Assembly (NCBI GenBank): GCA_965649205.1
Contig: CBFGJV010000006.1
Span: 26,015-90,014, forward strand
Reading direction: 5' to 3'
From: a candidate division WOR-3 bacterium
GTDB taxonomy: Bacteria; Hydrothermota; Tepidihabitantia; Tepidihabitantales; Tepidihabitantaceae
Length of the DNA: 64,000 nt
Shown: one piece after another, positions 539 through 58,540 of the stretch
How positions within the stretch are numbered: the first letter of the stretch is position 1
Layout of the letters: every line of letters starts with the position of its first letter
Translations under genes and position numbers: made by a program
The notes under the pieces: model-generated
What the model was told of the DNA's origin: nothing
What the model saw: the letters and a program-made list of their open reading frames with translations, nothing else
Databases searched by the model: none

Positions 539-609
539 TCTGACCTGTCAAGTCTGCGGGTTTTCTTTGGCTTGACTTCTGCCGGCCGCTTGGCTAGATT
601 CTTCCGCTG

Positions 610-683
610 GCGCCCGTAGCTCAGATGGATAGAGCGGCAGACTCCGGATCTGCAGGCCACGCGTTCGACTCGCGTCGGGCGCT
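610..683 (+). tRNA. tRNA-Arg, anticodon CCG
   Basis: GCGCCCGTAGCTCAGATGGATAGAGCG...CTCCGGA anticodon loop...GGTTCGACTC T-arm. Perfect 7-bp acceptor stem GCGCCCG/CGGGCGC. No encoded CCA; followed by a TTTTT run. Confidence 0.85.
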
Positions 684-771
684 TTTTCCCGATGGGGTCT
701 GGCTTCACTCTCCGCATGCAAGCGACAGAGAAAAAGAAGCCCCCACGTAGTAAGCAGGACTTATATGGGAG

Positions 772-1296: not shown

Positions 1297-1303
1297 CCGA
1301 GAA

Positions 1304-1783: not shown

Positions 1784-1792
1784 CGCTCTGAC

Positions 1793-2419: not shown

Positions 2420-2501
2420 AAGTCAAGAATCATACATAAGGTAGCAGGCGAACCAAAAATGGACGCATCCTTAGTTCTTCTGTGCCTGCTCACCCTGGGC
2501 T

Positions 2502-4033: not shown

Positions 4034-4062
4034 AACCGGAATCTGAAAGTATCCATCTGGCC

Positions 4063-5217
4063 TCAGTAAGCTGGCGTTGCCCAGCGCACCACAGTCTCAA
4101 ACGCTTTTTGTAGCCAGGGGGCCTGCTGTTGCAGGATTGACGCCCCAGTTCCCAGCAGCACTACGGCGGTAATGAAAACAATCAGCCAGAAACGGATAAA
4201 GTCCTCTCCCTTGAGTGTACCCAGCATCACCGGTTCCGGCCGCAGATAACAGGAGGCCGCGTAAATCTCCTCGCCTATCATGGTATAGTCGCACGCAGCA
4301 ACGAAAAAAGGCAGCTGAGTAGTCTCGGTTGTACCCGCCAGCTGAATCGCCCCTACTGCATGACCGGTTTCAGCCATAATCAGCGACTCGGCGTAGAAGT
4401 AACCCAGCCAGAATATCGCTCCCGGCTTTTCCCGCAGAATAATTCCATCTACTCCGGCAGCGTATCCAAACTGATCAGAAGTCAGGAAGGTAATATTGTC
4501 CGGATTGTAGAAATCCGGCCGACCCATTTCGGTATAGGCTTCCTTGACCGTCTCCTGAGCCGCCGTCATTACTATCGGGTCAGAGTTAGGCACCAAAAGA
4601 CGGGTGGCATATTCCGCTGACTTCATTGCCACCTTGCGCAACAGGGGCAAAGCGGCTATGACCACCATATCCGTGATATAGCCCAGCCCAAAACTGAACA
4701 ATATCGGCCGTCCCATCTCCGTCGCCCGACCCAGGGCTTCATCAATCGCATCCAGACCGGCTATCTTGCGCACGTACATCTTCGCGCCCCTGCGTGCCCG
4801 GTAGATGTAAAAAAGAAACAAAGCAGAAATCGCCAAAGTCAGAACCAATATATTCATACGGCTGGAATTGAACCACTGAGCAGAAGGAACTACCGGTCCG
4901 ACCACAGCACTGGCTACTGAGTCGCCGTCAACAAGCATAAGCACGTAATAGTAATAAGAACTTCCATCCCGCAACGAGGAATCTGTATCAACAATCTCGG
5001 AACTCGCAGCCGGTTCCTCTGCAATCAGTACGAAACCCGTATCTGGTTTCTCTGACCGAAAAATCTTGTATGTTTTTACGGAAACAGATTCGGCGTTCAC
5101 AGCTTCCCATGTCACCAGTATTGCTCTCCCCTGGTCATTGGGATTATCCCTGGCTGAAACGGAAACGGATAATGCCCCCCAAAGGCCCTGCAGGAAGAGC
5201 AGCATAACCGTGAGCAT
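4063..5217 (-). CDS. Hypothetical exported/membrane-anchored protein with an FN3-like N-terminal ectodomain (gene 1 of cluster)
   Basis: 384 aa. Layout is signal peptide, a beta-rich ~110-aa segment (VSVKTYKIFRSEKPD...SSYYYYVLMLVDG), a TM, a ~230-aa domain, then a C-terminal TM. Confidence 0.6.
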   Translation of the reverse strand: MLTVMLLFLQGLWGALSVSVSARDNPNDQGRAILVTWEAVNAESVSVKTYKIFRSEKPDTGFVLIAEEPAASSEIVDTDSSLRDGSSYYYYVLMLVDGDSVASAVVGPVVPSAQWFNSSRMNILVLTLAISALFLFYIYRARRGAKMYVRKIAGLDAIDEALGRATEMGRPILFSFGLGYITDMVVIAALPLLRKVAMKSAEYATRLLVPNSDPIVMTAAQETVKEAYTEMGRPDFYNPDNITFLTSDQFGYAAGVDGIILREKPGAIFWLGYFYAESLIMAETGHAVGAIQLAGTTETTQLPFFVAACDYTMIGEEIYAASCYLRPEPVMLGTLKGEDFIRFWLIVFITAVVLLGTGASILQQQAPWLQKAFETVVRWATPAY

Positions 5218-5273
5218 AATTAGGCTACAATCCTAATACTGCTCTTTCTGCTGTCAAATTGTGAACTGTGAAC

Positions 5274-6032
5274 TCAGGCTTTCCGCCCACTATATCCTTC
5301 CGTCCGGTCTGCGGACCTGGCCAGTTCCTCAAATTTCTGCCGCATCTCAGCGTTAATGCGTTGCACCTCTGCGCGCAGACAAGGCCCGGAATTACAGAAA
5401 TCTTTTCTGGGATAAATCGGATCTCCAACCAAAATCTCAATCTCGGTATTGAAAAGGTTTTCGGCCACAGAAAGAAAACCGGTCCAGCACTCCGTCCATA
5501 CTGTAGTCTGAACTACTCGGCCGGCGTACCTCAGATTACGTATATACACCGGCAATACTGGCGCGCCGGTACGTGCCGCCAGATACGCGGCACCGTCCTT
5601 GATATCCCTGACTTGGCCGCTCAGGTTGAAAGTACCCTCCGGGTAAATACCCACACACCCACCCAGCCGCAGAACCTCCATACACCTCCGCACTCCTCCT
5701 ACATTGTACCACGGCTCTCCCGTTTCCACTGGAAACGCATCACATATATTGCGCATTATAAAACGGGAAAAAGGACCCCGAAACCATCGGCTGGAAGCTG
5801 CAAAGAAAAGCCTGGTACGCAGAGCTATCTGCAGTATGACCGAATCTGCCCCATTGAGATGGTTGGCTACAACTATAAATCCTTTCCGCAAGAGCACCGT
5901 AACGCGACCAACCACCCGGACGCGAACACATAAACTGTAGATGACCAAGAGCAGCTGTTTGATACGAGTCCAGACCGTAGCACGCACCAGCTGCAACCGG
6001 GACCGCTCTGAAACAGACATGGACCGCCGCAT
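5274..6032 (-). CDS. plsC: 1-acyl-sn-glycerol-3-phosphate (lysophospholipid) acyltransferase, PlsC family
   Basis: Contains the HX4D motif (ANHLNGADSV) and the YPEGT motif, which together are diagnostic of the LPLAT/PlsC family. Confidence 0.8.
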   Translation of the reverse strand: MRRSMSVSERSRLQLVRATVWTRIKQLLLVIYSLCVRVRVVGRVTVLLRKGFIVVANHLNGADSVILQIALRTRLFFAASSRWFRGPFSRFIMRNICDAFPVETGEPWYNVGGVRRCMEVLRLGGCVGIYPEGTFNLSGQVRDIKDGAAYLAARTGAPVLPVYIRNLRYAGRVVQTTVWTECWTGFLSVAENLFNTEIEILVGDPIYPRKDFCNSGPCLRAEVQRINAEMRQKFEELARSADRTEGYSGRKA

Positions 6033-25199: not shown

Positions 25200-27542
25200 C
25201 TACGGAAGGACTAAGAAACTAACTTCCTCACTAGTATGCCCTGCCGCCAATAATCGCAACCTGTGTTTACCCGGTTCCAGACGCCAGAAGCAAGCATAAG
25301 GAGGCCCAACTACGGCCAATTCTCTTTCATCGAGTATCCATCTTGCTTCAGTAGCGCCGGCAGGTACAACCGCTCTGAAAAGAACTGCCTGAAATTCCCG
25401 GCTAAGGTCGGGGTCAATCTTGAACACATCTCCTTCGTCAGGGAAAAGCACAACCGGCTGTGAGCAAACTGTACGTGCCTGAGTTTGAGTTAAACCCGTC
25501 ACCGGAGGCAACGGCAAACCGTTGTCCGCCATCCAGGCCCAGTACTCCGGAGGATATACCTCATATACCTTATCCTGTATTAACAGATGAACCGAGCAAG
25601 TTTCTCTGGGCAGTCTGGAAGCAATGAATTTTTCCTGTACCGCTGCTGGACAATGTGGACCCGGGATTAAACCAGATTTGGGACACACCGCACACAACAC
25701 TATACCCGGAGGAAGGTCAAATCCGGAAGGCGAGCGTGTTTGCGCTGCCAGCATCACATCACGAAAAAGCGGACCGGCTCCTGTTACGCCCGAAACCCGG
25801 TGCATCGGCGAACCATCAAAGTTTCCCACCCATACACCTACCACATAATCGCGGGTGTAACCTACAGCCCAATTGTCCCGGTAATCCTTGGAGGTACCGG
25901 TTTTAACCGCACAAGGAAAAGGTAATGACAAACATGAGAACTGTCCAAAAGCGGGTGCACGTGCCTGATTATCGCAAAGAATATCTGTCACCAGATAAGC
26001 AGATTGGGGACTGAATACGCGAATCTGCGATCCACCAGTCCGCAATCCTGTTTCTGGTTCCGCATCAGACATTATCACCCGCACCTCTGAAAACTCTCCG
26101 TAGTTTGCCAGAACACGATATGCGTTTACCAGCTCCAGCAAACGTACATCACCCACCCCCAAACTCAGAGCCAAACCATAATAACCAGGTTCCCTCCGCA
26201 AACTGGTCAACCCACACTGACGAAGAACAGTAAGCAGACGGTCAACCCCCAGCTCCTCAGCAAGCCTCACGGCCGGAACATTGTAAGACGAACCAAGTGC
26301 CACCCGGCAACTCACAGGACCGCGAAATTGTCGGTCATAGTTACGGGGCACAAAATCGCCGGCCAGTTCTGCAAAATGGCCAGGCAAGTCAGGTACTATC
26401 GCGGCTGGAGACTTTTCCTGTTCAAATGCAAGGGCGTAAACAAAAGGCTTCAACGCCGAACCTGGCTGCCGCAGGCTCAAGCAAGCATTCACCTGCCCGG
26501 CATCCGGGGAAAAATAATCCCTTGAACCTACCATGGCCAAGACCTCCCCGGTAGCACGATCAAGAACCACGACAGCAGCGTTGGTAACGTGGTAGGAAGC
26601 AAATTGCCGCAGATGCACCTCAACCAAATCCTCACACTGCTGCTGAAGTCGGTAGTCGAGGGTAGTACGGAGCAGACGTTCTCTACCTCGCCAAGCTCCC
26701 TTTGGAAGACCTGTAGAAAGAACAAAATCAACGAAATGAGAGGCTTTGAATGGCCTGCGAGGACGACATGGTGTAATGCTTTCAGCCAACGCCGCCTCAA
26801 AATCAGAAAGTTTTATCCGGCGCCGTGCCAGCAGATTTTCCAAAATCCACCGTTGTCTTCGGCGACACCTTTCAAAGTGACGATATGGGTCACACTCTCC
26901 AGGTGAACGCAGCACTCCAGCCAGGAAACACGCCTGCGCCAGCGACAAACGGTCAGCGCTTCGATTGAAATAGGTCCGGGCAGCAGCATCAATACCATAG
27001 AGTTGGTTACCGAACCAGACCCGATTCACATACGCTTCCAAAATCTCCCGCTTCGACAAATGAAGTTCTAGGCGTATTGCACCAAGCAGTTCGCCCAGTT
27101 TTGTCGCTATTCCCCGTCGCCCAGAATGACGCAGAACACGCACAAGTTGCTGGGTGATAGTTGAACCCCCTGACACTACCCGACCTGCCCGCAGATTTGT
27201 CAGCGTGGCACGCACCAAAGCCAGCAGATCCACTCCACAATGACGCCAGAATCTTCTGTCTTCCGCGACTATTACCGCTTCCACAAACCAAAGACTCACC
27301 TGGTCAAGTTCCACCCAGTGGTTCACGCCATATTCGGAAGAACAGACTTCCCTCAGTGGTTCTCCTCTGCGGTCGGTAACTACCAGTGTAGCCAGTTGCT
27401 CCCCGCGTACGTAGCTGCGGCTCAACGGCAATAACAAGAATAAACCAACGCCCAGCCATAACAGCTGAACTATACTACACCCTACGGCTAGGACTCCGAT
27501 GGTAACTGTGTGCCTAGCTGCGGTAAATTTTACTCTCCTCAC
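25200..27542 (-). CDS. pbpC: Penicillin-binding protein 1C (bifunctional glycosyltransferase/transpeptidase)
   Basis: N-terminal TM, GT51 motifs (EDRRFWRHCGVD, GGSTITQQL), a transpeptidase domain and a C-terminal PBP1C-type extension. Its start codon directly abuts the stop of the alpha-2-macroglobulin gene. Confidence 0.85.
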   Translation of the reverse strand: MRRVKFTAARHTVTIGVLAVGCSIVQLLWLGVGLFLLLPLSRSYVRGEQLATLVVTDRRGEPLREVCSSEYGVNHWVELDQVSLWFVEAVIVAEDRRFWRHCGVDLLALVRATLTNLRAGRVVSGGSTITQQLVRVLRHSGRRGIATKLGELLGAIRLELHLSKREILEAYVNRVWFGNQLYGIDAAARTYFNRSADRLSLAQACFLAGVLRSPGECDPYRHFERCRRRQRWILENLLARRRIKLSDFEAALAESITPCRPRRPFKASHFVDFVLSTGLPKGAWRGRERLLRTTLDYRLQQQCEDLVEVHLRQFASYHVTNAAVVVLDRATGEVLAMVGSRDYFSPDAGQVNACLSLRQPGSALKPFVYALAFEQEKSPAAIVPDLPGHFAELAGDFVPRNYDRQFRGPVSCRVALGSSYNVPAVRLAEELGVDRLLTVLRQCGLTSLRREPGYYGLALSLGVGDVRLLELVNAYRVLANYGEFSEVRVIMSDAEPETGLRTGGSQIRVFSPQSAYLVTDILCDNQARAPAFGQFSCLSLPFPCAVKTGTSKDYRDNWAVGYTRDYVVGVWVGNFDGSPMHRVSGVTGAGPLFRDVMLAAQTRSPSGFDLPPGIVLCAVCPKSGLIPGPHCPAAVQEKFIASRLPRETCSVHLLIQDKVYEVYPPEYWAWMADNGLPLPPVTGLTQTQARTVCSQPVVLFPDEGDVFKIDPDLSREFQAVLFRAVVPAGATEARWILDERELAVVGPPYACFWRLEPGKHRLRLLAAGHTSEEVSFLVLP

Positions 27543-30500
27543 TCACTTAATTTCTAGATACTGCTGACCAGTGTGGCCAAAAACCTCAGGTGTATACATT
27601 TCCTCCACCCGCGTGGGTGGAAGGAAAAATCTGCCGCTTGTAAGCGCTCTAACCCGATAAGTCTCCGTGTGCACACCCTTGGTAAGGTAAGTAGCCACCA
27701 GAAGGTAACGGTCATGGTATGTTTCTTCGTAGTTAAAGCCGCCCCACCACTGTTTGTTCGATTTCGTAGAAAGAGGTTGAGTCTGACGTTCAGTGGCAAA
27801 GGAAGTATTAACTATCTCCCAGCCCGCAGGCAGAGGGTCGTCCAGCACCACAAATATCCGGTCCTGAGCAGTGTGTACTTTCAAAGTTATGATATACTCT
27901 GCTCCGCGTACGTAACCTGATACCTTGCCCACGGGCCTGATAACTTTCTCTACTCGGAATCCCTGATCCTTGGCCTTTAGCTCGCCCTTGCGGGCATAAT
28001 AAAGCCTGAGTCCATAATACATTCTGCCCTGTCCCTTTCTGCTGATGTTTACTGGCAAGGTCGTTTTTGCCAAACTATCAATCGGCAGGAAACGACGAGC
28101 AGTCTTCAACGAACGACCAGAGAATACTGCACTGAGCACGTCTTTACCTGCAATCCTGACTGAAGCTCTGAAATTCGGCCTCTCCTTTTCATACGTGCGG
28201 TAGAAAGTTGCCAACGCATCAAAAACACAGGCATTTTCTTGGGTCGTACGCCAACGGCCAACCCTACGCTCCGCAATCAGCCACCTGACTATTTTCTCTG
28301 CAAACTCAATCTGCCCTTGATGTTCTAGTAGCGCTTGCAGTACCACAGCCGTGGTTCGCACATCTGAATGAAACAGCCATCCTCCTTCTCTTTCTTCCTC
28401 ATAGTGTGCCATAGTCGGCTCGAGCTTGAGTTTGTTATTCATCGCCCGTATAAGATTACTCCTTGCCTCCGCATATACAGACTTAGGAAGCAAAGCTAGC
28501 GTCTTCAACAGGTATGCTTTACCATACACTGACATTTGGTCAACTTGGTCAAGCAAGAAAGGTAGGTGAGATTCTACTTTCTCCCCCCATAGCGCAATTG
28601 CATACACAGCCAGACTGCGGGCAGTGAGATACTCATCTGTTGAATACGGCCAGTCTGTCCCACGTTTACCGTAGTTGAGCCAGTTCGTCAGGTAACTCTT
28701 GCCTCGCTCGCTAACCCGGGAAGCCACTTGGAAACCCTTCTTCTCTGCCAGTGCCAGAACGTACATGGTATAAGCTGAAAGCCAAGGAGAAGGCTTTTCG
28801 TAGGCATAAGACTCGAGGTCTGGCCAGAAGTAAAAGCCGCCAGATTCATCCTGGTATCTGCTTACCACATCCAATTCAGCCTGCACAAACTTACGCAAAG
28901 CCGAGCCCCGCAACTCAGACAAACCAAATTGGTTTATCACATCCTCCCCGACAATAAAAGGCAGTATTTTGCTCATCCGCTGCTCCAGACATTCATAAGG
29001 ATACGTACGCAAGAATTCCAGCCCTCTTTCCAGTCCTGTGAGTCCCGAAGAAGAAACTGCAACCTCCAGCCCCCCGACTCCCGCAAAGACGTCAGGCGGC
29101 ACACTCACCGTCTGTTGTATCACTGAATCCATTGTCTGCTCGTACAGAGCCACTGCTTCTGAAACTACAGAAGGTATTGCTGGCAAAGTTACACGCAACC
29201 TGTCCCTTGCTCCCTCCCCACTCGCCTCAAAGGTAAACTCTGCCTCGCCTGCACCGATACAAAGGTAGTCAAACACAACTTCCACAGGACGGTTCGGCTC
29301 TACTTCCACTTGCCGACTTGTACTGCCATCAATCCTCACTCCCTTGGCAGCTGTTGCTTTCACCGTAACTTTCATCTTCTTGTCAGTGCGATTGTGCACC
29401 ATTACGCCGGCCGAAAAACGGTCCTCAGGCCGTATGAAACGCGGTAAAGAACTCACCAGAAGCAGCGGTTTATTAGTCTGAAACTTGCTTTCGCCCGAAC
29501 CAAACTTGTCAACTGTTGCCGCCACGGCCATTATCTGCCAAGTGGTGAGATTATCTGGCACACGAAAACGGACACGAGCTCTGCCGTTCTCATCGCTTCT
29601 CAAAGACGGTATCCAAAGCGCCGTTTCGAGAAACTTCTGCCGGTAGGCATAATCATACCCACCATCAAGCCCTACCCCATCTAATCCGCCACCACCTGCA
29701 GCCTCACCTTTCTCACCGTAATTGCGCTGACCAATCACATGCAGCCTGGACTCAGCTGTTACCACCGAAAGAGATCGAGAGGCGTAAAACATACTGAACG
29801 GATCCGGCGTCCTGTAGCCAACCAGCTTTAAGACGCCAAGATCAACGACCGCAAGCGATACTTCTGAGCGAACTCCTCTACCTTTCTTGTCCAAGACTTG
29901 CAAGTCAATTTCTACCTCCTGCCCTGGCTGGTACTCGGTCCGCCCCGTTTTCACAACCACCGTCAACTTCTTGGCTTCCGGATCAACTGGCAACTCTACA
30001 TATCCAATCTTGAAGCCCGGTTTACCCAGGTCCTGGCCTTCGTCTCCAAAGCTGTTATAGGCAGTTCTCCCTTTCAGCAGAACTACCGAAACAAATACGT
30101 TGGGAAGATACTCTTCTTTTATCGGTATTCTGATCAAATCCGCATTGCCGCTAATCTCTGTTCCAAAGTAGTCCAGTACCAGCTCCCGCTCAACCGTCAC
30201 CATAGCCTTAACCCCGGTCCACGGTGATTTTACAAGTATCTTCGCAGTATCGCCTGGCTTATAAGCATTCTTATCCCTCACCAACTCAATCAGGTCGTCA
30301 TCTCGTATCATCCACGCAGCTTCGCCCTTGCCTGCAACCCAGAACTCCAGATCGGTTCTCGCAGTATTATTCCGTCTGTCTCTCATTTCACACTTGCACC
30401 AGTATTGACCTGGCTTGTCCGGTCTGAACCACTTGCGCACCGCTTCGGACTCTGTTCTGACCTCGAAAGTGGCTACTTTCTCGTCTACTTTCTCGCTCAA

Positions 30501-33197
30501 CCAAGAATACCTACCCCCGGTCTGAGCCTTACGCGCCGAACGCCATATCCGCCGGAACACCGTAACCGTCACGTTTTCACCACTGGCTGGTCTACCGTCT
30601 GGGAACGCAGCCACTAAATCTAAACCTACAGAATCACCCAGTTCTACCATACCCCTGGTCATCTTTACGCCTACATAGCGTTCTGCTCGGTGGACGATAT
30701 ACGATTCTCGACCGGTAATACTCCTCTGGTTAGTGGCAGTAACCGTCGCTTCGCAGGTCACACGACAGCTGGAAAGCCGCCTCCCTAAATTCAGCTTAGT
30801 TTGTACCTGCAAATGCCCCTGGACGTCTAATTTGCCGCTCCCTGAACTCAGCAGACTTATTGCTTGTTCAGTCTCATCCATGTACGCGCCCCAGCTGAAC
30901 CCTTCGTATCCGGGAGGCGAGAAAGACGTAGGTTCCAAACTCACCGTCCAATCCACCTGTTCGCCTGCCATCTGAGCTCCAAACAGATATCTGGCGTTGA
31001 TATGCGCCGTGAACATGTCACCCGCAACATAGCTATCTTTGTCGCCCTTTACTGTGACTTCGAACTCTGCTGGCCTGTATGCCTCAACCCGAAAATGTCC
31101 ATAGAATTCGTGCTCACCCTGAGAAAAAACAATACTGTAGTAACCGGTGAAAGCCTCTGCCCCCAGTGGCAAAGAAATATCAAAGCTACCCCAGTCAGAC
31201 AATCTCACCCGCCGGGTGAAAATCTCCTCATCCCGCGAATCTGTTACTCGTACCAACCCATCCCTGCGACTGGGAATAATCCACCTGCCTCGCTGCTTGT
31301 GGCGGATAATACCCTTAATGCGAACCGTATCCGCCTGTTTGTACAGCCCCTTTTCGGTGTAAATGAAGCCCGAAGGTTCGGTAGGGTCAGGAGACCAATC
31401 ATAGCTCACGCCAAGCTCATAAGGATGAATTCCAGTGCCCCATTCCGAATGCACAAAACCTTCTCCTCCCGGTTCCCGGACAAACATCCACAAACGAGGA
31501 CTATCCCACTCGCTTCGCGCCTTAACACCCAGCATAGCCCATCCAGGGAACACCACAAACCCGTTCTTATCCGTGCGACCAGTCCAGACGGACCGGTTGG
31601 CATCATCTCGCAACTCAACTGTGACTCCTGCTACAGGTGCGCCGTCAACCAGACGAGTCACATAACCTAGCCCGTTTTCTGGTGAAAACTTTGCTGTCAG
31701 CCCAAACGGTGATACCTGCAGAAAAGCTCGACGATACCTTGCACCCCGTTCTGGTTGGTGAAGCATATCCAGTTCACAGAACAAAAAGCCGGATTTCCTT
31801 CCTCCTAATCCGGGCGCTATATCCAGAGGCAGTAGCGTACGTCTGTTCCTGACCAGCTTTGGTCTCCAAACAGTCTGATAATTAAAACCGGTCTGCCAGA
31901 TTCGCTCCAATTCGCCAGGCTTCTCTTTCTCCTCCTCCCCATGACCTTCGTACCGCTTCCGCCAGAAGGGAATAACTTCCCCGGCCTCCAGCCTCCTCAT
32001 CCTTACCTTCACTGATTCTACATTCACCATCCATACCGGATGACGCAACTCTGTGGCAGACTCCACAATACCCAAACCAACAGGCATACCCAGGGCTGGG
32101 CGATAGGAGACTGTCTTCAGTCGCAAACGGACGTCTTTACCCAGGCGATTGCCAAAACGGTCAGTAAGCTGGCGGGAAAGAATTACCTCGTACTGCGTCT
32201 CTGGAGCAAGTTCTACATAGAGGTACTGCTGCGTGGTTGCAAAATCATATTCGTACCGAGGCAACTTCACTGGAGGAGAGAATTTCACGTGCCTGAGTAA
32301 CTCTTCTTGCGCTACAGGATTGGAAAAAACAAATACCAGCGGATCTTCCGGGTGATGAGCGGACGCCCTCTCCAATCTTTCCAGCCGAAAGTGATTGAAG
32401 GTACGAAACTCTATTCTGCGTTCCTTCTCTAATCCCAAGTTGCCCTCAGCCGCCAATAATCCCTCCGCCAGGATAATCTGGTACTGAGTCTGTTTTCTCA
32501 ACTGCACTTTCGAGGTAAGCACTAACACCGAACTAAGTTTTTCTGGTTCATACCACCATGCATCTTCCGTTCTCTCCTTGGGTCTTGGATGACGGAGTCG
32601 AAAAGGCACCCTGGTTCCGTCGCCCGCCACCAACTGCAGAAATTTCTGGGCACGTTTTGGGTCCATCGGCATGTTAAAGTGAAGCCAGATGTTTGGCTTG
32701 AGTGTTACAAACTCCGCACCATGAAAGGGAACAGAATATTCCAGGCTAGGTCTCACAGTCTCAAACTCAAACTCGTAGTCCTGCTTGAGCATCCGTCCAC
32801 TCAACGAACGGACGCCTCGCGGTATTTTCACTTTAAATCTGGTCGCTGTGGGTAGAACAGTCGCCGGGCGAAAGACGACAGTATTTGGACTCAACCAGTC
32901 ACAAAAACCTGGGACTTCCGGGTCAAGGAGCAGTGGAAAATTCTCCTCCTCAGAGACTTCGCCAAGAGACACCATGGCATCATCGAAAGTCACCAGGATT
33001 TCGCTTGCCTCTTCTGTTTTCTCCAGCACCCCTACGGGTGTCGCAGCCACAATCCGCAGAGAATCGGCCCGACGCAATTCCTCTTCACTAAATACAGGCA
33101 TCGCTACACGCCGAGCCAAGGGCTGTCTAGGTTTCTCGCGGGGACAACTACCGACAACAACTAGGACAGCGCACAGAACCCATGCTCTTGTCCTCAC
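27543..33197 (-). CDS. yfhM: Bacterial alpha-2-macroglobulin (YfhM/ECAM-like) with intact thioester motif; probable lipoprotein
   Basis: 1884 aa. Contains the CLEQ thioester motif (…TYPYECLEQRM…). The N-terminus (VVVGSC) is lipobox-like. GTG start with AAGGAGGA SD. Paired with pbpC as in Proteobacteria. Confidence 0.85.
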   Translation of the reverse strand: MRTRAWVLCAVLVVVGSCPREKPRQPLARRVAMPVFSEEELRRADSLRIVAATPVGVLEKTEEASEILVTFDDAMVSLGEVSEEENFPLLLDPEVPGFCDWLSPNTVVFRPATVLPTATRFKVKIPRGVRSLSGRMLKQDYEFEFETVRPSLEYSVPFHGAEFVTLKPNIWLHFNMPMDPKRAQKFLQLVAGDGTRVPFRLRHPRPKERTEDAWWYEPEKLSSVLVLTSKVQLRKQTQYQIILAEGLLAAEGNLGLEKERRIEFRTFNHFRLERLERASAHHPEDPLVFVFSNPVAQEELLRHVKFSPPVKLPRYEYDFATTQQYLYVELAPETQYEVILSRQLTDRFGNRLGKDVRLRLKTVSYRPALGMPVGLGIVESATELRHPVWMVNVESVKVRMRRLEAGEVIPFWRKRYEGHGEEEKEKPGELERIWQTGFNYQTVWRPKLVRNRRTLLPLDIAPGLGGRKSGFLFCELDMLHQPERGARYRRAFLQVSPFGLTAKFSPENGLGYVTRLVDGAPVAGVTVELRDDANRSVWTGRTDKNGFVVFPGWAMLGVKARSEWDSPRLWMFVREPGGEGFVHSEWGTGIHPYELGVSYDWSPDPTEPSGFIYTEKGLYKQADTVRIKGIIRHKQRGRWIIPSRRDGLVRVTDSRDEEIFTRRVRLSDWGSFDISLPLGAEAFTGYYSIVFSQGEHEFYGHFRVEAYRPAEFEVTVKGDKDSYVAGDMFTAHINARYLFGAQMAGEQVDWTVSLEPTSFSPPGYEGFSWGAYMDETEQAISLLSSGSGKLDVQGHLQVQTKLNLGRRLSSCRVTCEATVTATNQRSITGRESYIVHRAERYVGVKMTRGMVELGDSVGLDLVAAFPDGRPASGENVTVTVFRRIWRSARKAQTGGRYSWLSEKVDEKVATFEVRTESEAVRKWFRPDKPGQYWCKCEMRDRRNNTARTDLEFWVAGKGEAAWMIRDDDLIELVRDKNAYKPGDTAKILVKSPWTGVKAMVTVERELVLDYFGTEISGNADLIRIPIKEEYLPNVFVSVVLLKGRTAYNSFGDEGQDLGKPGFKIGYVELPVDPEAKKLTVVVKTGRTEYQPGQEVEIDLQVLDKKGRGVRSEVSLAVVDLGVLKLVGYRTPDPFSMFYASRSLSVVTAESRLHVIGQRNYGEKGEAAGGGGLDGVGLDGGYDYAYRQKFLETALWIPSLRSDENGRARVRFRVPDNLTTWQIMAVAATVDKFGSGESKFQTNKPLLLVSSLPRFIRPEDRFSAGVMVHNRTDKKMKVTVKATAAKGVRIDGSTSRQVEVEPNRPVEVVFDYLCIGAGEAEFTFEASGEGARDRLRVTLPAIPSVVSEAVALYEQTMDSVIQQTVSVPPDVFAGVGGLEVAVSSSGLTGLERGLEFLRTYPYECLEQRMSKILPFIVGEDVINQFGLSELRGSALRKFVQAELDVVSRYQDESGGFYFWPDLESYAYEKPSPWLSAYTMYVLALAEKKGFQVASRVSERGKSYLTNWLNYGKRGTDWPYSTDEYLTARSLAVYAIALWGEKVESHLPFLLDQVDQMSVYGKAYLLKTLALLPKSVYAEARSNLIRAMNNKLKLEPTMAHYEEEREGGWLFHSDVRTTAVVLQALLEHQGQIEFAEKIVRWLIAERRVGRWRTTQENACVFDALATFYRTYEKERPNFRASVRIAGKDVLSAVFSGRSLKTARRFLPIDSLAKTTLPVNISRKGQGRMYYGLRLYYARKGELKAKDQGFRVEKVIRPVGKVSGYVRGAEYIITLKVHTAQDRIFVVLDDPLPAGWEIVNTSFATERQTQPLSTKSNKQWWGGFNYEETYHDRYLLVATYLTKGVHTETYRVRALTSGRFFLPPTRVEEMYTPEVFGHTGQQYLEIK

Positions 33198-49275: not shown

Positions 49276-50127
49276 ATGCGCCTTGCTGTAATAACAGCCT
49301 TTGCAGTCTGCGCCTCGGCACTGACCGTTCGAGCAAATCTCCTGGTAAATCCGGATTTTTCCGGATGGACCAATCCGAACAGACCTACAGGCTGGTTTGT
49401 GGAAGACACAACCAAAGCCAGGGTCGAACAAGCTACTAACCCGGTCCGTAGCGCTCCCTATGCGGTTAAACTGACCCGGCGTGTAGCAGGCACTGGCAAC
49501 AACGCCGGTATCATACAATATGTAGCGGTATCTCCCAATCTCGACTATACGCTATCCGTATGGTTTCTGGACGACGACGTGAACGCCAGCGGCGGCTGCG
49601 GCATCAGTTGGTACACCCAAGATACTACCTTTATATCAAGTACCACCAATGCCTATACCGATTCGGCTATTCGCACCTGGCAGAAAGTAGTAAAAACGGC
49701 CACTGCACCGGCCACTGCGGCTCTGGCTAAAGTATACTTCCGAGTGTACGGCTTCACTGGCAGCCCGGCCGGGGGAGTAGTCTATCTGGATGACGCCAGT
49801 TTTGTGCAGGGGTCAGGTGTAACAGAGGACAAATTCTACCCTGCCGCACAGACCTGTCGACTAAGAATCAGCCCCAATCCGACACCAGGCCAAACTGTAA
49901 TGCAGGTAACTCTGACTCAGCGAGAACAAGTTAAACTCGCGGTATACGATCTGACTGGCAGAATCGTCTCCTCTGTTTTCTCTGGCGTCCTGAATGCGGG
50001 TTCGCATTCTTTCTCCTGGAAAGCAATTGATCTGGATAACAAACCTCTGTCTAACGGTCTTTATTTCGTGTTAATGTCAGACGCCAGCGATAAGGTTGCC
50101 GTAGCCAAGCTGCTCATCGAACGCTAG
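49276..50127 (+). CDS. Secreted CBM4/9-like carbohydrate-binding protein with a T9SS (Por) C-terminal sorting domain
   Basis: Signal peptide. NLLVNPDFSGW…YTLSVWF…VYLDDASF is the CBM_4_9-like jellyroll. The C-terminal ~80 aa (KLAVYDLTGRIVSS…NGLYFVLMSD…KLLI) match the T9SS CTD pattern. GAAGGAGG SD 6 nt upstream. Confidence 0.7.
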   Translation: MRLAVITAFAVCASALTVRANLLVNPDFSGWTNPNRPTGWFVEDTTKARVEQATNPVRSAPYAVKLTRRVAGTGNNAGIIQYVAVSPNLDYTLSVWFLDDDVNASGGCGISWYTQDTTFISSTTNAYTDSAIRTWQKVVKTATAPATAALAKVYFRVYGFTGSPAGGVVYLDDASFVQGSGVTEDKFYPAAQTCRLRISPNPTPGQTVMQVTLTQREQVKLAVYDLTGRIVSSVFSGVLNAGSHSFSWKAIDLDNKPLSNGLYFVLMSDASDKVAVAKLLIER

Positions 50128-50929: not shown

Positions 50930-50967
50930 GAAGTAGACAAAGAGGGCGGCGCCGAGACGCCGCCCTC
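50930..50967 (-). terminator. Rho-independent terminator of the RRM-protein gene
   Basis: Perfect 10-bp stem GAGGGCGGCG/CGCCGCCCTC with a 6-nt loop, 17 nt after the TAA stop. Followed on the minus transcript by UUUGUCUACUU. Confidence 0.55.
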
Positions 50968-50983
50968 CTGCTTCAGGTCTTAC

Positions 50984-51274
50984 TTACCAGCGGTTGCCGG
51001 AATCACCGCCAGACCTGCCGCCTTCCTTGCGCGAACGCGCCTCGTTAACGGTCAGGGCTCGGCCGTTCATCTGGTAACCGTTCAGGGCAGAAATAGCTGC
51101 CTGAGCTGCTTCGTTGTTTGCCATCTCTACGAAGGCAAAACCACGCGAACGGTCGGTGAATTTGTCTTTGACTATCTCAGCCGAAGTTACTTCACCATGC
51201 TTGCTGAACAGCTCATGCAGCTGCTCTTCTGTAGCGCTGAAGGGAAGATTCCCTACGAAAATGCGCTGACCCAT
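50984..51274 (-). CDS. RRM-domain RNA-binding protein
   Basis: RNP-2 IFVGNL and RNP-1 RGFAFVEM. Gly/Arg-rich tail. 96 aa. Confidence 0.85.
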   Translation of the reverse strand: MGQRIFVGNLPFSATEEQLHELFSKHGEVTSAEIVKDKFTDRSRGFAFVEMANNEAAQAAISALNGYQMNGRALTVNEARSRKEGGRSGGDSGNRW

Positions 51275-51605
51275 CGAAAAACCTCCGATGTATTTTTGCT
51301 TGGGAGTCGCTAAAGGACACTACGGCTCAGGACTCAGGCGCTAACACGGTCCGGACTCATAGGCCAATGAACGAACACAAGCTGCTTAGTGGACCTCTTC
51401 TTACTTTTCCTTAGAGCTGGATGTGAGGTCCCTCCACAACCAACTGATTGTATTATAGAGGCCATAACTCTCTCTGTCAAATTCTACGCCTACCTGTAAA
51501 TAGGCCGGTAACTTGACATCTGCTGGCGGCGGATGCTACAACAATTCAGTGCCGCTAGATGTAAGAGCAAGCCATTTACCTAATAGCCCGAAAAGATGAG
51601 GTAGC

Positions 51606-53765
51606 TTGAACAAAGTGCTGACCGCGGTCCTGCTTACTGCTGGTGTGCTGCTAACAGCCGCACAGGGTAACCTGTTGACCAATGGCGACTTTGAACAGCC
51701 GCTCACGGTCGGCTGGAGCCAAGAGTTTGATGATAGCCAGGGGTCATACGTAATCACCCGTGATACAACACTGCAACCAGACCCGGATTTCGAAGTGCGC
51801 ATATATAAGTACTTGCGCTACTACGCCAGGTTGAAACAAACAGTAGCCGTGCCTGGTACAAACGTGCGTTTCTCTGGCGCGGCCAAACTGGTTGCCACTA
51901 AAGGTCCGACCAGCGGTTACTATGCCTATGCTGCCATAATTCTGGAATATCAGAACGCCGGCGGAGAAGTTCTGGGCCGTACCTGGATAATGAAAAAGAT
52001 AGGCGACTTCAATCCCCAGAATACCCCCACTCAGCACTACATACTGACTATAAGCGATGTTTGGGAGAACTACGGTTTTGTTCTCGCTGATGAGTTAGCC
52101 AATCTGCCAGGCATCAACCCCCGGGATATTTCCCGGGTAAGTGTCGTTGTGGAAAGCTACGGCACCGGCGCTTCAGGTTGAGGGGGATGTGAAACCACGA
52201 CGGAGGTCTCCGCCGATGACATAGCCCTCACATACCTGGGCGCTGCTCCATTTCTCACCTACCAGTCAAACACAATTATTGACCCGCCACCCGGAAGAAA
52301 TAACAACGGCCGATTTGATCCGGGCGAGAGCGGCGATATACGTGTGAAAGTGAAGAATGTAGGCAACCAGGAGGCACACACTGTCACCGCAGTTCTGCGG
52401 TCAGGGCATGATCTGTTTGTCGTCACCGACTCTACCGGTAGTTTTGAAGACATACCAGCCGGTGGCAGTGCTGAGAACGATGCGGACCGGTTCTCAATTC
52501 AAGTCAACAGCAGCATGCGTCCCGGCACGACAGTCCTCTGCACCCTCCTGCTGCACTGCGAGAACTGGGGATACGACTGGAAGTATGTTTTCACCCTCCA
52601 GGTAGGCACGGCACCGCGGCCAGGCCAATACGTGGTTACGCTAGATACCGGCTCAGTTTCGCTTTCAGTCTGTGCCATAGGCTCGCTGGGCTTCAACGAG
52701 CCTGGCGGAACTGGTAACGGCTTCCGCGTGCCCAAGACCGTCGCCAACACTCTTTACTATGGTAGCATAATGGCTGGGAATTCAGACGCCTATCTGGTTG
52801 ACCACTTCTTCTCGCGACCTGCTTCTGGTCCCACACACAAGGACTGGGCGATGGAAGAGAGCTTCAGGTTCATATTCCCCGGTTCACCGGCAGATATGCA
52901 CTGGATGAACACAATGAACGATGCAGGTCACACTTCGCCCCGCCGGCTGCGGACAGAGCAGCACTGGTATATGAATGCCAATCCCACTAATTCCAACTGG
53001 ACAGTTGTAACGCTGGAACTGAAGAACGACGGCACCAGCCCGCTGAATGAAATGTACGCCGGCATCATAGGCGATTTTGATGTTGGGTCTTCGCCTACGA
53101 CCAATATTGTCGGTTCAGATGAAACCCGGCGTGCGATCTGGATGGCACAGGCCACAAGCGAAAACCCCACAGTAGGCTTTGTTCTCCTGGACCCGCCGAT
53201 GTTCGCCAACCTGACTGCGGTAGACCACGCGCGCTATGTGTATCCTGATTCGGCTATGACCGATGGTATGAAGTGGCGTCTGCTCAATGGTACCATCTCT
53301 TTACGTCAGTCTAATCGCAGCTATGACTGGTCAGTGCTGGTCTCGGCCGGACCGTTCAACCTGCCAATTGGTTCAAGTCAGAAACTGGCCTTCGCAGTTG
53401 TAGGAGCAACAAGCCGGGCCGGCTGGTTTGCCGCGGTCGAGAGCGCGCAGAAGTGGTACGACGCTAACCTGGTAGGTGTAGAGGAAGAAAAACCGTGCCC
53501 TGCCTACATCGAACAGTCTCTGCTACTTCGGCCCAATCCTTTCTCTCGTGCCACTTACGTGTACTACTTCGCACCGACAGCATCCCGCGTATGCCTGTCC
53601 GTGTATGACATCTTGGGCCGGGAAATAGAACGAACGTATTTTGATGCTGGTGCAGGCGTAAACCGCTACGTCTGGCAACCTAAAAACGTTACTCCTGGTA
53701 TCTACTTCGTGAAAGCGACCACACCAAACCACGAAACTACAGCTAGAGCTCTTCTGCTGGAATAA
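51606..53765 (+). pseudogene. T9SS cargo protein (CBM4/9-like N-domain, CARDB-like middle, Por C-terminal sorting domain) interrupted by a single in-frame TGA at 52179-52181
   Basis: The ORFs 51606-52181 and 52344-53765 are in the same frame. The frame reads open across the gap, and the translation remains protein-like (…GESGDIRVKVKNVGNQEAHTVTAV…). Signal peptide with an NLLTNGDFEQP N-terminus. The C-terminus (LLLRPNPFSRATYVYYFAPT…GIYFVKATTPNHETTARALLL) matches the T9SS CTD. Confidence 0.7.
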
Positions 53766-53858
53766 GAAGATCCGCTCGGTGTTATGGATGGGGCGCTCTG
53801 CGGAGCGCCCCCGACTTTCTGTGCCATTTTGACTTACAGCCAGCCGGTACTATTGTTT

Positions 53859-56243
53859 ATGAACAAGGCAGAGATGTCTATGATGTCGGCACTAGTGCTG
53901 GCCGGAGCGGCTCTGGCGCAGCCGATTGGTGCGGACGCGGCCATCAAATGCAGAGGCGGGCGAGCCGGTGGAGTTCGCGGACGCTGTCCTGTACTCGCTG
54001 CCGGACGGCTCCCAGGTGCAGGGCACGATCACAGATAAAACTGGCAGTTTCGCCCTTACCGCGCTTCGTCCCGGACGTTACTATCTAGAGGTCTCTTTCA
54101 TCGGATATCAGACGAAAACAGTGGACAATATTGAATGCGCGGAGGGAGCCAGACTGGACCTGGGTCGGCTGGAATTGCAGGCAAAGCCGGTACCGGTAGA
54201 AGGCGCGGAGGCAACAGCTACCACTCTTACCATTTCTCGCAAGCTGGACAAGATTGTGATTGACGTTACCAAACTGCTCAATGCCGGGTCGGGCACCGCG
54301 GTGGATGCTCTGAAAAACGCGCCGTCGGTGAAGGTGAACATTGACGACAACGTCACCCTGCGCGGCAGTTCCAACTTCAAGGTACTGGTGGACGGCAGAC
54401 CGAGCGAGCTGGAGCCACAGGACGCCTTGAAGCAGATTCCGGCCGCGACGATCGACAATCGGCCAGGTACGAGGCGGATGGGCCCGCGGGTATCGTCAAC
54501 ATACTGCTGAAGAAGCAGAAGGGTCCGGGCATCAGCGGGATGGCTAACGCCAACGCAGGTCTGAACAACCGGTATGGCACTGACCTCCTGGCCGGGTATC
54601 GTGAGGGGAAAGTCAACGTCTACGGCGGCGGCAACATCAACCGCTTCTCGTGGCTGAACCGCAGTGAGTCAAAGAGGAAGATAGTCACAGGAAGCGATAC
54701 TCTTGTTACAGCGAGCAAGGGTTCGGGCCGCGGGGGCCCGGTCTTTGGTGGCGGCCGGGCTGGTGGAGACATCGAGCTGGGGCCCAGGGATAAGGTCGGT
54801 CTGTCGTGCCGGATGCGCGGTTTTCGCACCGGCGGTGTCTGCGGTTCGGATGCAACAGAGCGTCGTCTGCCTCAAAATTCGGTCAGGCACTATACGACCG
54901 AGGAAACCTGGCTTTGGACCGGCACAGCACTGTTCGGCATGGCCGATTACGAGCACGGGTTTGATACCAGCGGCCAGAAGTTGACCGGACGGCTCTACCT
55001 CATCAATCGTTCCGGCGGCTCCAGCGGGTTGCGCCAGGAGATGGAAGCAAAAGATACAGTCTATGGTAGACGCAATGAGCAGGGAAGGCCGTGGCTGCGT
55101 CTTACCGGTGAACTGGGGTACGAGAAACCGGCACTGGCCGGCGGCAAGCTGGAATCGGGCTACGAAGGTAATCTGGAACGCACGTCGGACGATATGAAGC
55201 AGTGGCAGTACGATACAGCCGCGCACGCCTACGAGCCGGATACATTGTCCAATCACTCCAACTCTGGAGCAGACCAGGTGCACGCGGCGTACGCCACATG
55301 GTCAACAGAGTGGCGCGGGCTGGGAATACAGCCCGCTCTGCGCGTGGAGTATGAGGGCCGCGCGGTCGAGGTATTGGACACGGATTCGACCTACCTGGTG
55401 AACCGATGGGACGCATTTCCCAGCCTGCACTTGTCTTACGGCCTGCCCGCGAATCAGCAAGTGAGCGCGAGCTATTCCCGTCGGGTGAACCGGCCAAGCA
55501 TCTGGGAGCTGGACCCGTTCCCGAACTGGCAGGGGCCGCACAGCGTGTACCAGGGCAACCCGCTGCTTTCCCCTGAGTTCACCGATTCCTGGGAGGCCGG
55601 GTACGAGTTGTCGTTCGGACAGAACTCGGTCAACGCGGGTCTGTACTACCGTGTCACGCGCGACCTGTTTCAGTGGGTGACGATGAAGTATGCTCCGGAC
55701 ACGGCTGCACTCTTGACTACACCGCGCAATGTGGGACAGGACTATTCGCTGGGAGGCGAGTTCTCAGCCAATCTCAATCCGTGGAAGTGGCTGACGCTCG
55801 CGCCCAGCGCGGACCTGTACGACTATCGCGTTACCGGCAATCTGCTCGGCCAGGACTTCGCCCGTTCGAGTTTCGCCTGGAGCAGTTCCCTCAGCCTGAC
55901 TCTGCGCGCACCCTTTGGCACACAGGTACAGTTGGATGGAAACTACACTGCTCCAACGGTCACGTCTCAGGGCAGAGAAGGAGGCTGGTTCGATACCGAT
56001 GTGGCGGTCAGGCAGATGTTCTTGAACCGGACATTGTCAGTTACCCTACGGATCGGACACATCTTCGGCGGTGTGCCCTGGAGAACTGAATCAGCGGGCC
56101 CGGGGTTTTCCGCCAGCTCATCCTATTTCCACGACGAAAGGGTGGTGACTCTTTCCATAAGCTACAACCTGAACAACTTCCGGCCCAACCCGAAAATGCG
56201 CGCTGGCGAAGGCGAAGAAATGCAAGGTGGTCCGGGTCGCTGA
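53859..56243 (+). pseudogene. Outer-membrane TonB-dependent-receptor-like beta-barrel protein (CarboxypepD_reg + plug-like + barrel) disrupted by two frameshifts
   Basis: Three consecutive ORFs lie in frames 0/1/0. The first carries the signal peptide (MSMMSALVLAGAALAQPIGADAA). The second carries the carboxypeptidase-regulatory-like and plug motifs (VQGTITDKTGSFAL…; DALKNAPSVKVN…LRGSSNFKVLVDGRP). Frame 0 resumes upstream of the third ORF's ATG with conserved …ARYEADGPAGIVNILLKKQ, and the barrel ends …SISYNLNNF. Confidence 0.6.
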
Positions 56244-56307
56244 GTTGCAACTTCGGTTCTGGTCTGCTTGACACGGGGCAGGTGGTTTCTATCATAACTT
56301 TCTTACC

Positions 56308-57216
56308 TTGAGTACCAAAAGCGAATCTGTTTCGCCCCAGTCCATCCGGCCCTATGTGTACTATCCGGGCTGCACGCTCTACACCAAGGGACGGAGTCTG
56401 GACCTGTGCGCGCGCAAGGCAGCGGAGCGCGTAGGATTCAGTCTGGCTGAGATGCAGTCGTGGACCTGCTGTGGAGCGATATACAACACCAATTCAGACG
56501 ATTTCGCGGCGCAGGTTGGGCCGGTGCGTAATCTGGCCAGGGCGAGTCAGGCAGGCGACAAGCTGGTTACCCTGTGTGCCGCGTGTTACAACGTGCTGAA
56601 ACGGGCGAATGACAACCTGAATGCGAGGGGAAACGAGGAGACGCGGGACAGGCTGCTGGCATTCGTGGACGAAAAGTTCGAGCGGCCGGTAGAAGTGGTG
56701 CATTATCTGGATGTGCTGAAAACTGACATAGGCTGGGAGAATCTGAAGCAGAAGGTGACAAAGTCTCTGGCTGGACTGAAGGTGGCGTCCTACTACGGCT
56801 GTCTGATGGTGCGCCCGGCCTCGGTGCTGAGCTTCGACGACCCGGACAATCCCAGCGTGATGGACGAACTGGTGTCAGCTCTAGGCGGCCAGCCGGTAGA
56901 CTATGATTTCAAGACAGAATGTTGCGGCGGGTATCTGGTTACGAACCAGCGCGCCACCGCGGTGGAGTGTTCGCGCCGAGTATTGGACAACGCGGCCCAG
57001 ACCGGTGCAGAGGTGGTGGTGACTACCTGTCCTCTTTGTCAGTACAACTTGGACGCGTTGCAGAAAGATATGGGCCGGGAAAGCCAGATGCCGGTTTTGT
57101 ACTTCACCCAGCTTCTCGGGCTTGCAGTCGGGCTGGACGAGTCAGAGCTTGCCTTGGACTATAACCAGACAGATGCGAGGCCGCTCTTGAAGTCCAAGGG
57201 TCTGCTTACCGCGTGA
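56308..57216 (+). CDS. hdrB: Heterodisulfide reductase subunit B-like protein (two CCG domains)
   Basis: YYPGCTL…C…CCGAIY and YYGCLMVRP…CCGGYL…CPLCQ are the two Cys-rich CCG domains. The TTG start is uncertain. Confidence 0.78.
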   Translation: MSTKSESVSPQSIRPYVYYPGCTLYTKGRSLDLCARKAAERVGFSLAEMQSWTCCGAIYNTNSDDFAAQVGPVRNLARASQAGDKLVTLCAACYNVLKRANDNLNARGNEETRDRLLAFVDEKFERPVEVVHYLDVLKTDIGWENLKQKVTKSLAGLKVASYYGCLMVRPASVLSFDDPDNPSVMDELVSALGGQPVDYDFKTECCGGYLVTNQRATAVECSRRVLDNAAQTGAEVVVTTCPLCQYNLDALQKDMGRESQMPVLYFTQLLGLAVGLDESELALDYNQTDARPLLKSKGLLTA

Positions 57217-57220
57217 GGTT

Positions 57221-58540
57221 GTGAGCATGGCAACCACCAGAAAGGCATTGGTCATCGGCGGCGGCATAGCGGGCATTCAGGCGGCTCTGGACATAGCCAA
57301 CGCAGGAGTAGAGGTAGTGCTGGTGGAACGCAAGTCATCTATCGGCGGGCATATGGCGCAGTTGTCCGAGACTTTCCCCACCCTGGACTGCTCGCAGTGC
57401 ATCCTCACGCCGAAGATGGTGGACGCGGCTCAGCACCCGCGCATCAGGCTGATGACCTACTCCGAAGTGGAATCGGTCAGCGGCTCGACCGGCGATTTCC
57501 AGGTACGGATCAGGCAGAAGGCCAAATATGTGGACTGGGATGTATGCAACGGTTGCGGCCTGTGTATGACCAAGTGTCCGGGCAGGACAGAGTCTGAGTT
57601 CAATGAGGGACTGGAGAAACGCACGGCGATACACAGGCTATTCCCTCAAGCAGTACCGAACAAACCGGTCATAGATCGCAACTCGTGCATCTATCTGCAG
57701 AAGGGCAAATGTCGGGTATGCGAGAAAATCTGCCCGCCCCAGGCAATAAGGTTCGAGGACCAGGACCGGCTAGTTCAAGAAAACGTTGGCGCTATCGTAG
57801 TAGCTACCGGATTTGAGCTGCTTCACCTTAAAACTTATGGTTCCTACGGACTGGAACGGCATCCGGACGTTCTCACCGGTCTGGAGTTTGAGCGGCTGCT
57901 ATCAGCGTCCGGCCCGACCAAGGGAGAAGTGAAGCGACCTTCGGACGGCAAGGAACCCAAACGTGTTGTGTTTGTGAAGTGCGCGGGCTCAAGAGACAGG
58001 GAACGGGGCGTACCATACTGCTCCAAGGTGTGCTGCATGTACTCGGCCAAGCACGCGCTTCTGTACAAGCACCGGGTGCACGACGGCGAGGCCATCATTT
58101 TCTACATTGACGTGAGGACAGCGGGTAAGGACTTTGAGGAGTTCTACAAGCGGGCAACAGACGAGGGTGTTATCTATGTGCGCGGCAAAGTGTCCAAAAT
58201 TTTCCGCCGGGGCGACAAGATGGTGGTATGGGGTTCGGATACGGTCGCAGGCCGGAAAATGGAAGTGGAAGCTGATTTGGTGGTATTGGCCACAGCGATG
58301 ATTCCAGATTCCCATGCCAGCTCGATAGCAGATATGCTGGGTATCCAAGTAGATCAGTATGGATTCTTCACTGAAGCGCAGTACAAACTGAAACCGGTAG
58401 AAACAAACCGGCCAGGCATATTCCTAGCTGGCGCTTGCCAAGGGCCGAAGGATATTCCAGAAACAGTAGCTCAGGGCTCAGCCGCTGCAAGCAAGGTTCT
58501 GGAGCTTCTGGCACAAAGACAGGAGGAGAAGCGTGGCTAA
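57221..58540 (+). CDS. hdrA: Heterodisulfide reductase subunit A-like FAD/Fe-S oxidoreductase (short form, no MvhD or C-terminal ferredoxin domain)
   Basis: FAD motif ALVIGGGIAGIQAALD. Inserted ferredoxin-like clusters CNGCGLCMTKCP and CRVCEKICPP. 439 aa. Confidence 0.78.
   Translation: MSMATTRKALVIGGGIAGIQAALDIANAGVEVVLVERKSSIGGHMAQLSETFPTLDCSQCILTPKMVDAAQHPRIRLMTYSEVESVSGSTGDFQVRIRQKAKYVDWDVCNGCGLCMTKCPGRTESEFNEGLEKRTAIHRLFPQAVPNKPVIDRNSCIYLQKGKCRVCEKICPPQAIRFEDQDRLVQENVGAIVVATGFELLHLKTYGSYGLERHPDVLTGLEFERLLSASGPTKGEVKRPSDGKEPKRVVFVKCAGSRDRERGVPYCSKVCCMYSAKHALLYKHRVHDGEAIIFYIDVRTAGKDFEEFYKRATDEGVIYVRGKVSKIFRRGDKMVVWGSDTVAGRKMEVEADLVVLATAMIPDSHASSIADMLGIQVDQYGFFTEAQYKLKPVETNRPGIFLAGACQGPKDIPETVAQGSAAASKVLELLAQRQEEKRG

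Follow-up and report, generated by a model that had tools for sequence, protein, structure and literature searches.

Why should a conserved outer-membrane receptor-like gene have its signal peptide, its CarboxypepD_reg/plug segment and its barrel in different reading frames, directly downstream of a surface-protein gene that contains a stop codon in frame? The question is raised by positions 53859-56243 of a 64,000-nucleotide stretch of DNA from a candidate division WOR-3 bacterium (contig CBFGJV010000006.1 of assembly GCA_965649205.1), hereafter the window. A preliminary description of this DNA had assumed a 1-nt indel at each of two junctions in the receptor gene and, counting the stop in the upstream gene, had spoken of two adjacent disrupted cell-surface genes. 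We report here that the receptor gene lacks 14 and 22 nt at two sites, which probably makes it a young pseudogene (we put the probability at about 0.6), and that the stop in its neighbor, the gene at 51606-53765, is very probably a selenocysteine (Sec) codon.

Two relatives served for comparison. The closer one, L006, is a 6658 bp contig from the Logan assembly of SRR32459165 that is syntenic with window positions 50939-57397 at 87.8% nucleotide identity. It carries P0117, an intact 801-aa orthologue of the receptor that is ~90% identical and was found as the second member of the cluster of the longest receptor open reading frame (ORF), which encodes 567 aa. The other, L001, is the locus of the protein P0002 and, at 69% amino acid identity, is more distant than L006. 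With these as references, the receptor gene is laid out as follows.

53859..53947, + strand: receptor segment 1, frame 0; ATG, signal peptide MNKAEMSMMSALVLAGAALA ending before QP, and the first CarboxypepD_reg residues (..DAAIK)
Between 53947 and 53948, + strand: deletion 1, 14 nt missing where L006 has GGGGCGGGTGTACG; placed by DNA alignments to L001 and L006 and by protein alignment
53948..54458, + strand: receptor segment 2, frame 1; CarboxypepD_reg (Pfam, 1e-12) and the N-terminal part of the plug
54036..54038, + strand: TAA that closes translation from 53859 in frame 0; product of 59 aa
Between 54458 and 54459, + strand: deletion 2, 22 nt missing where L006 has GATAGAGCTAATCACCAACCCT; placed by DNA alignments to L001 and L006 and by protein alignment
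54459..56243, + strand: receptor segment 3, frame 0; the remaining plug, the full OMP_b-brl_3 / TonB_dep_Rec barrel (OMP_b-brl_3 2.9e-78, profile 1-408/408) and the TGA stop

The ORF listing and a three-frame translation of 53859-54560 put the signal peptide, the CarboxypepD_reg-plug segment and the barrel in frames (position mod 3) 0, 1 and 0, the order given in the preliminary description, and both of its junction sites held, at 53947/53948 and 54458/54459. Frame 0 opens with MNKAEMSMMSALVLAGAALAQPIGADAA... and then turns to nonsense up to the TAA. Frame 1 contributes ...SNAEAGEPVEFADAVLYSLPDG...ALKQIPAATIDN... and meets a stop at 54508-54510, and frame 0 resumes as ...SARYEADGPAGIVNILLKKQKG..., ending at the TGA at 56241-56243. 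In the alignment, the start of P0002 falls on the ATG at 53859, and the signal peptide, recognized by inspection as a hydrophobic core followed by ALA-QP, aligns with the N-termini of the homologues. The longest ORF within segment 3 spans 54540-56243 (567 aa) and is reported by gene callers as P0001. No uninterrupted ORF of the receptor as sequenced carries all of its domains.

That the pieces form one receptor-like barrel gene of the outer membrane, with no single translation product, was already proposed in the preliminary description and is upheld by Pfam matches and by intact orthologues of 801-806 aa. When the three-frame translation was compared with Pfam hidden Markov models, a check that had been suggested earlier, CarboxypepD_reg, OMP_b-brl_3 and TonB_dep_Rec_b-barrel were matched, together with Plug below threshold. 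On the stitched product, the E values are 8.7e-12 for CarboxypepD_reg, 6.1e-78 over the full profile for OMP_b-brl_3, and 9.2e-18 for TonB_dep_Rec_b-barrel; the barrel scores 263 bits against OMP_b-brl_3 (cut-off 27) and 65.7 bits against TonB_dep_Rec_b-barrel. The Plug match, at 21-23.3 bits, falls just under the Pfam cut-off of 23.9 because deletion 2 removes a conserved plug strand; the intact P0117 and the homologues carry PF07715. The receptor reached no NCBIfam cut-off and is thus not assigned to a substrate-specific family.

In a protein search, more than 100 single proteins of ~800 aa cover 95-100% of the stitched query; many of them come from candidate division WOR-3 and are named TonB-dependent receptor by their sources, and the stitched receptor is 55-70% identical to intact WOR-3 proteins. 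This bears directly on whether the pieces could instead be separate genes or gene fragments, each matching a protein of its own, an outcome that the preliminary description had itself envisaged. The 567-aa ORF is indeed called as a stand-alone protein, P0001, but the stitched product is colinear with single ~800-aa proteins (E = 0), the pieces lie on such proteins in order and without overlap in the more than 100 homologues, L006 has a single 801-aa ORF at the same syntenic position, and neither the 194-aa nor the 567-aa receptor ORF has a signal peptide. Colinearity with single proteins and synteny led us to reject three separate genes, to which we attach next to no probability.

The CarboxypepD_reg-plug-OMP_b-brl_3 architecture is common in the FCB (Fibrobacteres-Chlorobi-Bacteroidetes) group and in candidate division WOR-3. 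The window gene shares with TonB-dependent receptor-like outer-membrane proteins their domain order (CarboxypepD_reg PF13620/PF13715, Plug PF07715, and OMP_b-brl_3 PF14905 or TonB_dep_Rec_b-barrel PF00593) and has a full-length barrel match. It departs from them in its twice-interrupted ORF with a Plug match just below threshold, in the lack of an adjoining SusD-like partner gene, and in a tail of 16 residues past the last barrel strand that is present throughout its family. This tail, PKMR(A/E)GEGxEMQGGPGR, is conserved at the receptor C-terminus (56190-56240) and in all aligned homologues, where it follows ...SYNLN(N/S)F; the usual terminal aromatic barrel strand is not the end of the protein in this family, and the tail comes after the last strand.

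The gaps of 14 and 22 nt are the only ones in the receptor gene relative to both L006 and L001, and their exact lengths against two intact relatives replace the single-nucleotide indels assumed earlier. Deletion 1 moves the reading frame from 0 to 1 and removes ~5 conserved residues, the strand (K)GRVYD, between DAAI and (D/N)AE. Deletion 2 moves it from 1 to 0 and removes 6-8 conserved residues (KIELITNP) from a strand that, in the alignment with 11 intact homologues, forms the nearly invariant plug motif ID(K/N/R)IE(I/L)ITNPSA(K/R)Y. Refilling both gaps yields one frame that reads ...A I K G R V Y D A E... and ...I D K I E L I T N P S A R.... As the two losses add up to 36 nt, frame 0 is regained, but too late to save the product, since this frame has already run into a stop at 54036. 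A ribosome would be put out of frame by deletion 1 and would terminate there after 59 residues, with deletion 2 restoring the frame only downstream of the stop. As sequenced, the receptor is predicted to be non-functional, with a protein that cannot be made.

A net frame change of zero (0 to 1 to 0) across three conserved segments is also what programmed recoding would produce, by a ribosomal frameshift of +1 at the first junction and of -1 at the second, or by bypassing. However, neither site is interrupted in L006 (88% nucleotide identity), in L001 or in 10 other homologues; GCC ATC AAA TGC and ATC GAC AAT CGG, the sequences at the junctions, contain neither an X XXY YYZ heptamer nor a prfB-like CUU UGA; and even a perfectly shifted product would lack conserved residues, including the IE(I/L)ITNP plug strand. 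With intact orthologues, no slippery site and residues missing, programmed frameshifting or bypassing is effectively refuted, and we consider it exceedingly improbable.

No homopolymer, repeat or microhomology was seen at the breakpoints of either deletion; homopolymer context in particular, which the preliminary description had singled out for inspection, is absent from both. Losses of 14 and 22 nt differ from the homopolymer-type errors of sequencing chemistry, and their size weakens a simple explanation by base-calling error.

How local and how recent the damage appears can be gauged from the 6.46-kb alignment of the window with L006. The 2 indels in the receptor gene (2385 nt) are the sole coding indels of this alignment, with 0 in the 3357 nt of the gene encoding an RNA recognition motif (RRM) protein, the neighboring gene and the HdrB-like gene taken together; the intergenic DNA has 9 indels in 536 nt. 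When the window is compared with L006, the ratio of nonsynonymous to synonymous substitution rates (dN/dS) comes to 0.089 in segment 2 and to 0.11-0.13 in segment 3, with all three segments at ~0.09-0.13, compared with 0.08-0.17 for the neighboring genes. When changes are polarized with L001, 32 nonsynonymous and 48 synonymous ones fall on the window branch, compared with 23 and 49, respectively, on that of L006 (Fisher p = 0.32). Low dN/dS and a small, non-significant branch excess imply that the receptor was under selection for essentially the whole of its divergence from L006, and a long-standing pseudogene is rejected on the same grounds, its dN/dS being like that of functional neighbors. 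If the intergenic indel density is taken as the neutral rate, inactivation falls roughly within the last 5% of the divergence path, an estimate with wide Poisson limits with which the slight nonsynonymous excess is compatible.

Like ordinary bacterial pseudogenes, the receptor shows short out-of-frame deletions in a gene that is otherwise well conserved, a close relative has the orthologue intact, and no mechanism compensates for the losses; unlike such pseudogenes, it has two lesions with no other decay and a dN/dS statistically like that of a functional gene. The lack of other decay means that the break is either very young or not real. We favor real and very recent deletions, and hence a young pseudogene, because the assembly is otherwise clean, the sizes of the losses are atypical of sequencing chemistry, and the numbers fit neutral decay after a first hit. 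One deletion would have inactivated the receptor and the other would have followed as a neutral change, at a rate that agrees with how densely indels occur in the intergenic DNA on its flanks. The cause of such a loss is a matter of speculation; the receptor might have been dispensable, or it might have been selected against if phages or toxins used it at the cell surface.

Several points weigh against a young pseudogene. The collections searched hold no second assembly of the same strain that could bear out the deletions as read from the contig, the best match in the protein collection beyond the window's own ORF being P0117. Nor do the deletion ends, which show no microhomology, point to a mutational mechanism. 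A local fault of assembly or scaffold joining in a strain-variable gene would also leave two lesions in one gene without further stops or a significant rise in dN/dS, and the somewhat higher divergence of the 511-nt stretch between the breakpoints would likewise fit a short contig with a join on either side: the stretch has 84.5% identity to L006, against 88.3% for the flanks, and a third-position identity of 66%, against 77%.

The gene might, accordingly, be intact in the organism, either because short sub-contigs of a strain-variable region were misjoined or because a minority deletion allele was taken as the consensus. Receptor genes are often strain-variable, both lesions fall within one gene, 511 nt apart, the interval between them matches L006 slightly less well than the DNA on either side does, and strong purifying selection still shows in all three segments, which have no additional stops. 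Against such an artifact, the identity profile shows a somewhat more diverged middle piece with no sharp boundary at the breakpoints, which also lack repeats or homopolymers able to mislead an assembler; coding indels are absent from the rest of the 6.5 kb of synteny; and the window is otherwise clean. No other frameshifts were found in its 64 kb, it contains no N, and two long ORFs, of 1884 and 780 aa, are unbroken. Where ORFs overlap on the same strand, the pairs that we checked are complete, separate genes (PGK, profile 1-379/379; TIM, 1-242/245; a GltD-like protein), on which account sloppy assembly on a genome-wide scale is rejected. A local artifact of assembly or consensus is, in our assessment, the less likely explanation, though one to be taken seriously.

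Whether young pseudogene or assembly flaw, the receptor break is an ordinary case in an uncultured bacterium. It carries little weight beyond flagging the contig for a check at the level of reads.

The neighboring gene is a different matter. The claim of two adjacent disrupted genes does not stand, given that its TGA is in frame in every homologue examined and is followed by a hairpin resembling a selenocysteine insertion sequence (SECIS). What had been taken as damage to a surface-protein gene is predicted to be a conserved selenocysteine codon. Its features are the following.

51606..53765, + strand: neighboring gene, one frame, 719 codons, predicted selenoprotein (domain order below)
52179..52181, + strand: in-frame TGA, predicted selenocysteine codon, in the context YGTGASG-U-GGCE; TGA in 27/27 family members
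52198..52215, + strand: SECIS-like hairpin CGACGGA-GGUC-UCCGCCG with the apical loop GGUC at 52205-52208, 26 nt downstream of UGA (counted from its U); from folding and covariation

The order of elements in the gene is a signal peptide, a beta-jelly-roll of ~190 aa, the TGA, a SECIS-encoding linker, a module of ~450 aa that also forms the C-terminal part of WOR-3 C25 peptidases, and a C-terminal sorting domain of the type IX secretion system (T9SS). The only signal peptide is N-terminal and the sorting domain C-terminal, so that both occur solely in the read-through product. The residues around the predicted selenocysteine are YGTGASG-U-GGCETTTEVSADD, and L006 carries the same TGA. From the TGA to the next possible start (GTG, 52344) there are 54 codons without ATG, GTG or TTG, and dN/dS in this interval is 0.137, like that of the flanking coding sequence.

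Homologues of the downstream part are either C-terminal modules of 1190-aa WOR-3 C25 peptidases or ORFs of ~500 aa called from just after the TGA position. We assembled 27 instances of the family from the window, from the loci of these homologues, and from one metagenome scan with an alignment of the N-terminal domain. The stop is TGA in all 27 and always shares the frame of the downstream ORF; a cysteine codon occurs at this position in none of the 27 loci, and no full-length homologue that spans it was found. In gene calls, every family member is divided between an ORF of ~190 aa and one of ~500 aa, and all 13 homologues of the N-terminal domain in the protein database are 180-195 aa long, that is, cut at the TGA. 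A reassigned genetic code was rejected as an explanation, TGA being the commonest ordinary stop in the window, where it ends 21 of the 40 ordinary long ORFs. No other SECIS-like case emerged when the whole window was scanned for additional in-frame TGAs flanked on either side by long ORFs.

Across the family, the hairpin has a stem of 6-7 bp and a loop of GGUC or AGUU that is placed 20-26 nt downstream of UGA, counted from its U. A GGUC-type apical loop at about such a distance is the target of SelB in fdhF of E. coli and fdhA of Moorella thermoacetica. Among 22 distinct sequences, 93.5% of the cells are paired and 4 of the 7 pairs have changed on both sides; 0 of 500 shuffles did as well as the observed alignment, and slid registers collapse. 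Compensated stems include GGCGGA/UCCGCC, GGCGAA/UUCGCC, GGCAAA/UUUGCC and GGCGAG/CUCGCC, and stem pairing accounts for the covariation of the encoded amino acids among E-V-S, K-V-F and R-V-L. In the divergent member L023, another perfectly paired hairpin, with a GUU loop, lies at an unchanged distance, and the C25-peptidase homologues lack the hairpin-encoding insert. An Rfam search gave no SECIS match to the hairpin of the neighboring gene.

The window itself contains no tRNA-Sec, selA, selB or selD within its 64 kb. A physical link between the selenocysteine machinery and the family is found in the relative L020 (Ga0299912_10000180, 1-5537), which carries the 3' end of selB at 2-514 (SelB-wing_3, 3.2e-17), a tRNA-SeC at 2076-2169 on the - strand and, directly downstream of both, two tandem family members with TGA at 3047 and 5096. 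The family also expands locally: L007 (1157-9572, ENA k141_63825) has four tandem paralogues, each with a ~188-aa part, TGA and a ~500-aa part, all in frame, and these are partly duplicated in L012.

Like bacterial selenoprotein genes, the neighboring gene combines an in-frame UGA with a hairpin whose GGUC (or AGUU) loop lies 20-26 nt after it, compensatory changes in the stem, and, in one relative, tRNA-Sec and selB next to family members. It differs from cytoplasmic redox-enzyme selenoproteins in being a T9SS cargo with a signal peptide, a jelly roll like that of a carbohydrate-binding module (CBM), and a Por_Secre_tail, and from usual selenoproteins in that neither a cysteine-containing homologue nor a uniform redox motif at the selenocysteine was found in its family. 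The context of this residue varies among members (U-G-G-C, C-U, or no cysteine nearby). The N-terminal domain matches no Pfam or NCBIfam entry, and its structural model, a confident one (predicted local distance difference test score, pLDDT, 88), is a beta-jelly roll that weakly resembles CBM and tailspike-lectin domains.

On these grounds, the gene most likely encodes a T9SS-secreted selenoprotein of an apparently undescribed family. The chances are about even that it founds a family of type-IX-secreted selenoproteins, located at the cell surface or outside the cell, in WOR-3 and relatives with the broader properties suggested here: an obligatory selenocysteine ending a CBM-like jelly roll, no cysteine forms found, a post-UGA segment (A-E-V-S-A-D-D and variants) that doubles as SECIS, and tandem arrays. 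Literature searches yielded no paper linking selenoproteins with T9SS cargo or with WOR-3, and a keyword search of a 2026 selenoproteome review gave no such family, neither of which is proof of novelty. If the prediction is true, a secreted, non-classical selenoprotein family would be added, and the annotation of such genomes would prove to truncate these genes systematically.

The protein encoded at 49276-50127 (+ strand) is a T9SS cargo with FlgD_ig and Por_Secre_tail domains whose mature N-terminus, ANLLVNPDFSGW, resembles the invariant jelly-roll start NLLxNGDFE..W of the selenocysteine family, and it reads ...VVYLDDASF where that family has U...EVSADDIAL. It could be a distant paralogue without selenocysteine, with a BLASTP match to the N-terminal domain that is not significant (E = 0.03).

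On the - strand, at 25200-33197, the ORFs of 1884 and 780 aa are contiguous in one frame, split only by a TGA at 27543-27545 that is directly followed by GTG. No GGUC-type hairpin was seen after this TGA, and the two ORFs are probably two adjacent genes.

Between the predicted selenoprotein gene and the receptor gene, at 53790-53811, lies a GC-rich inverted repeat, GGGGCGCTC-TGC-GGAGCGCCCC. It is kept in L006, where the surrounding intergenic DNA is only ~66% identical, and is probably the terminator of the upstream gene.

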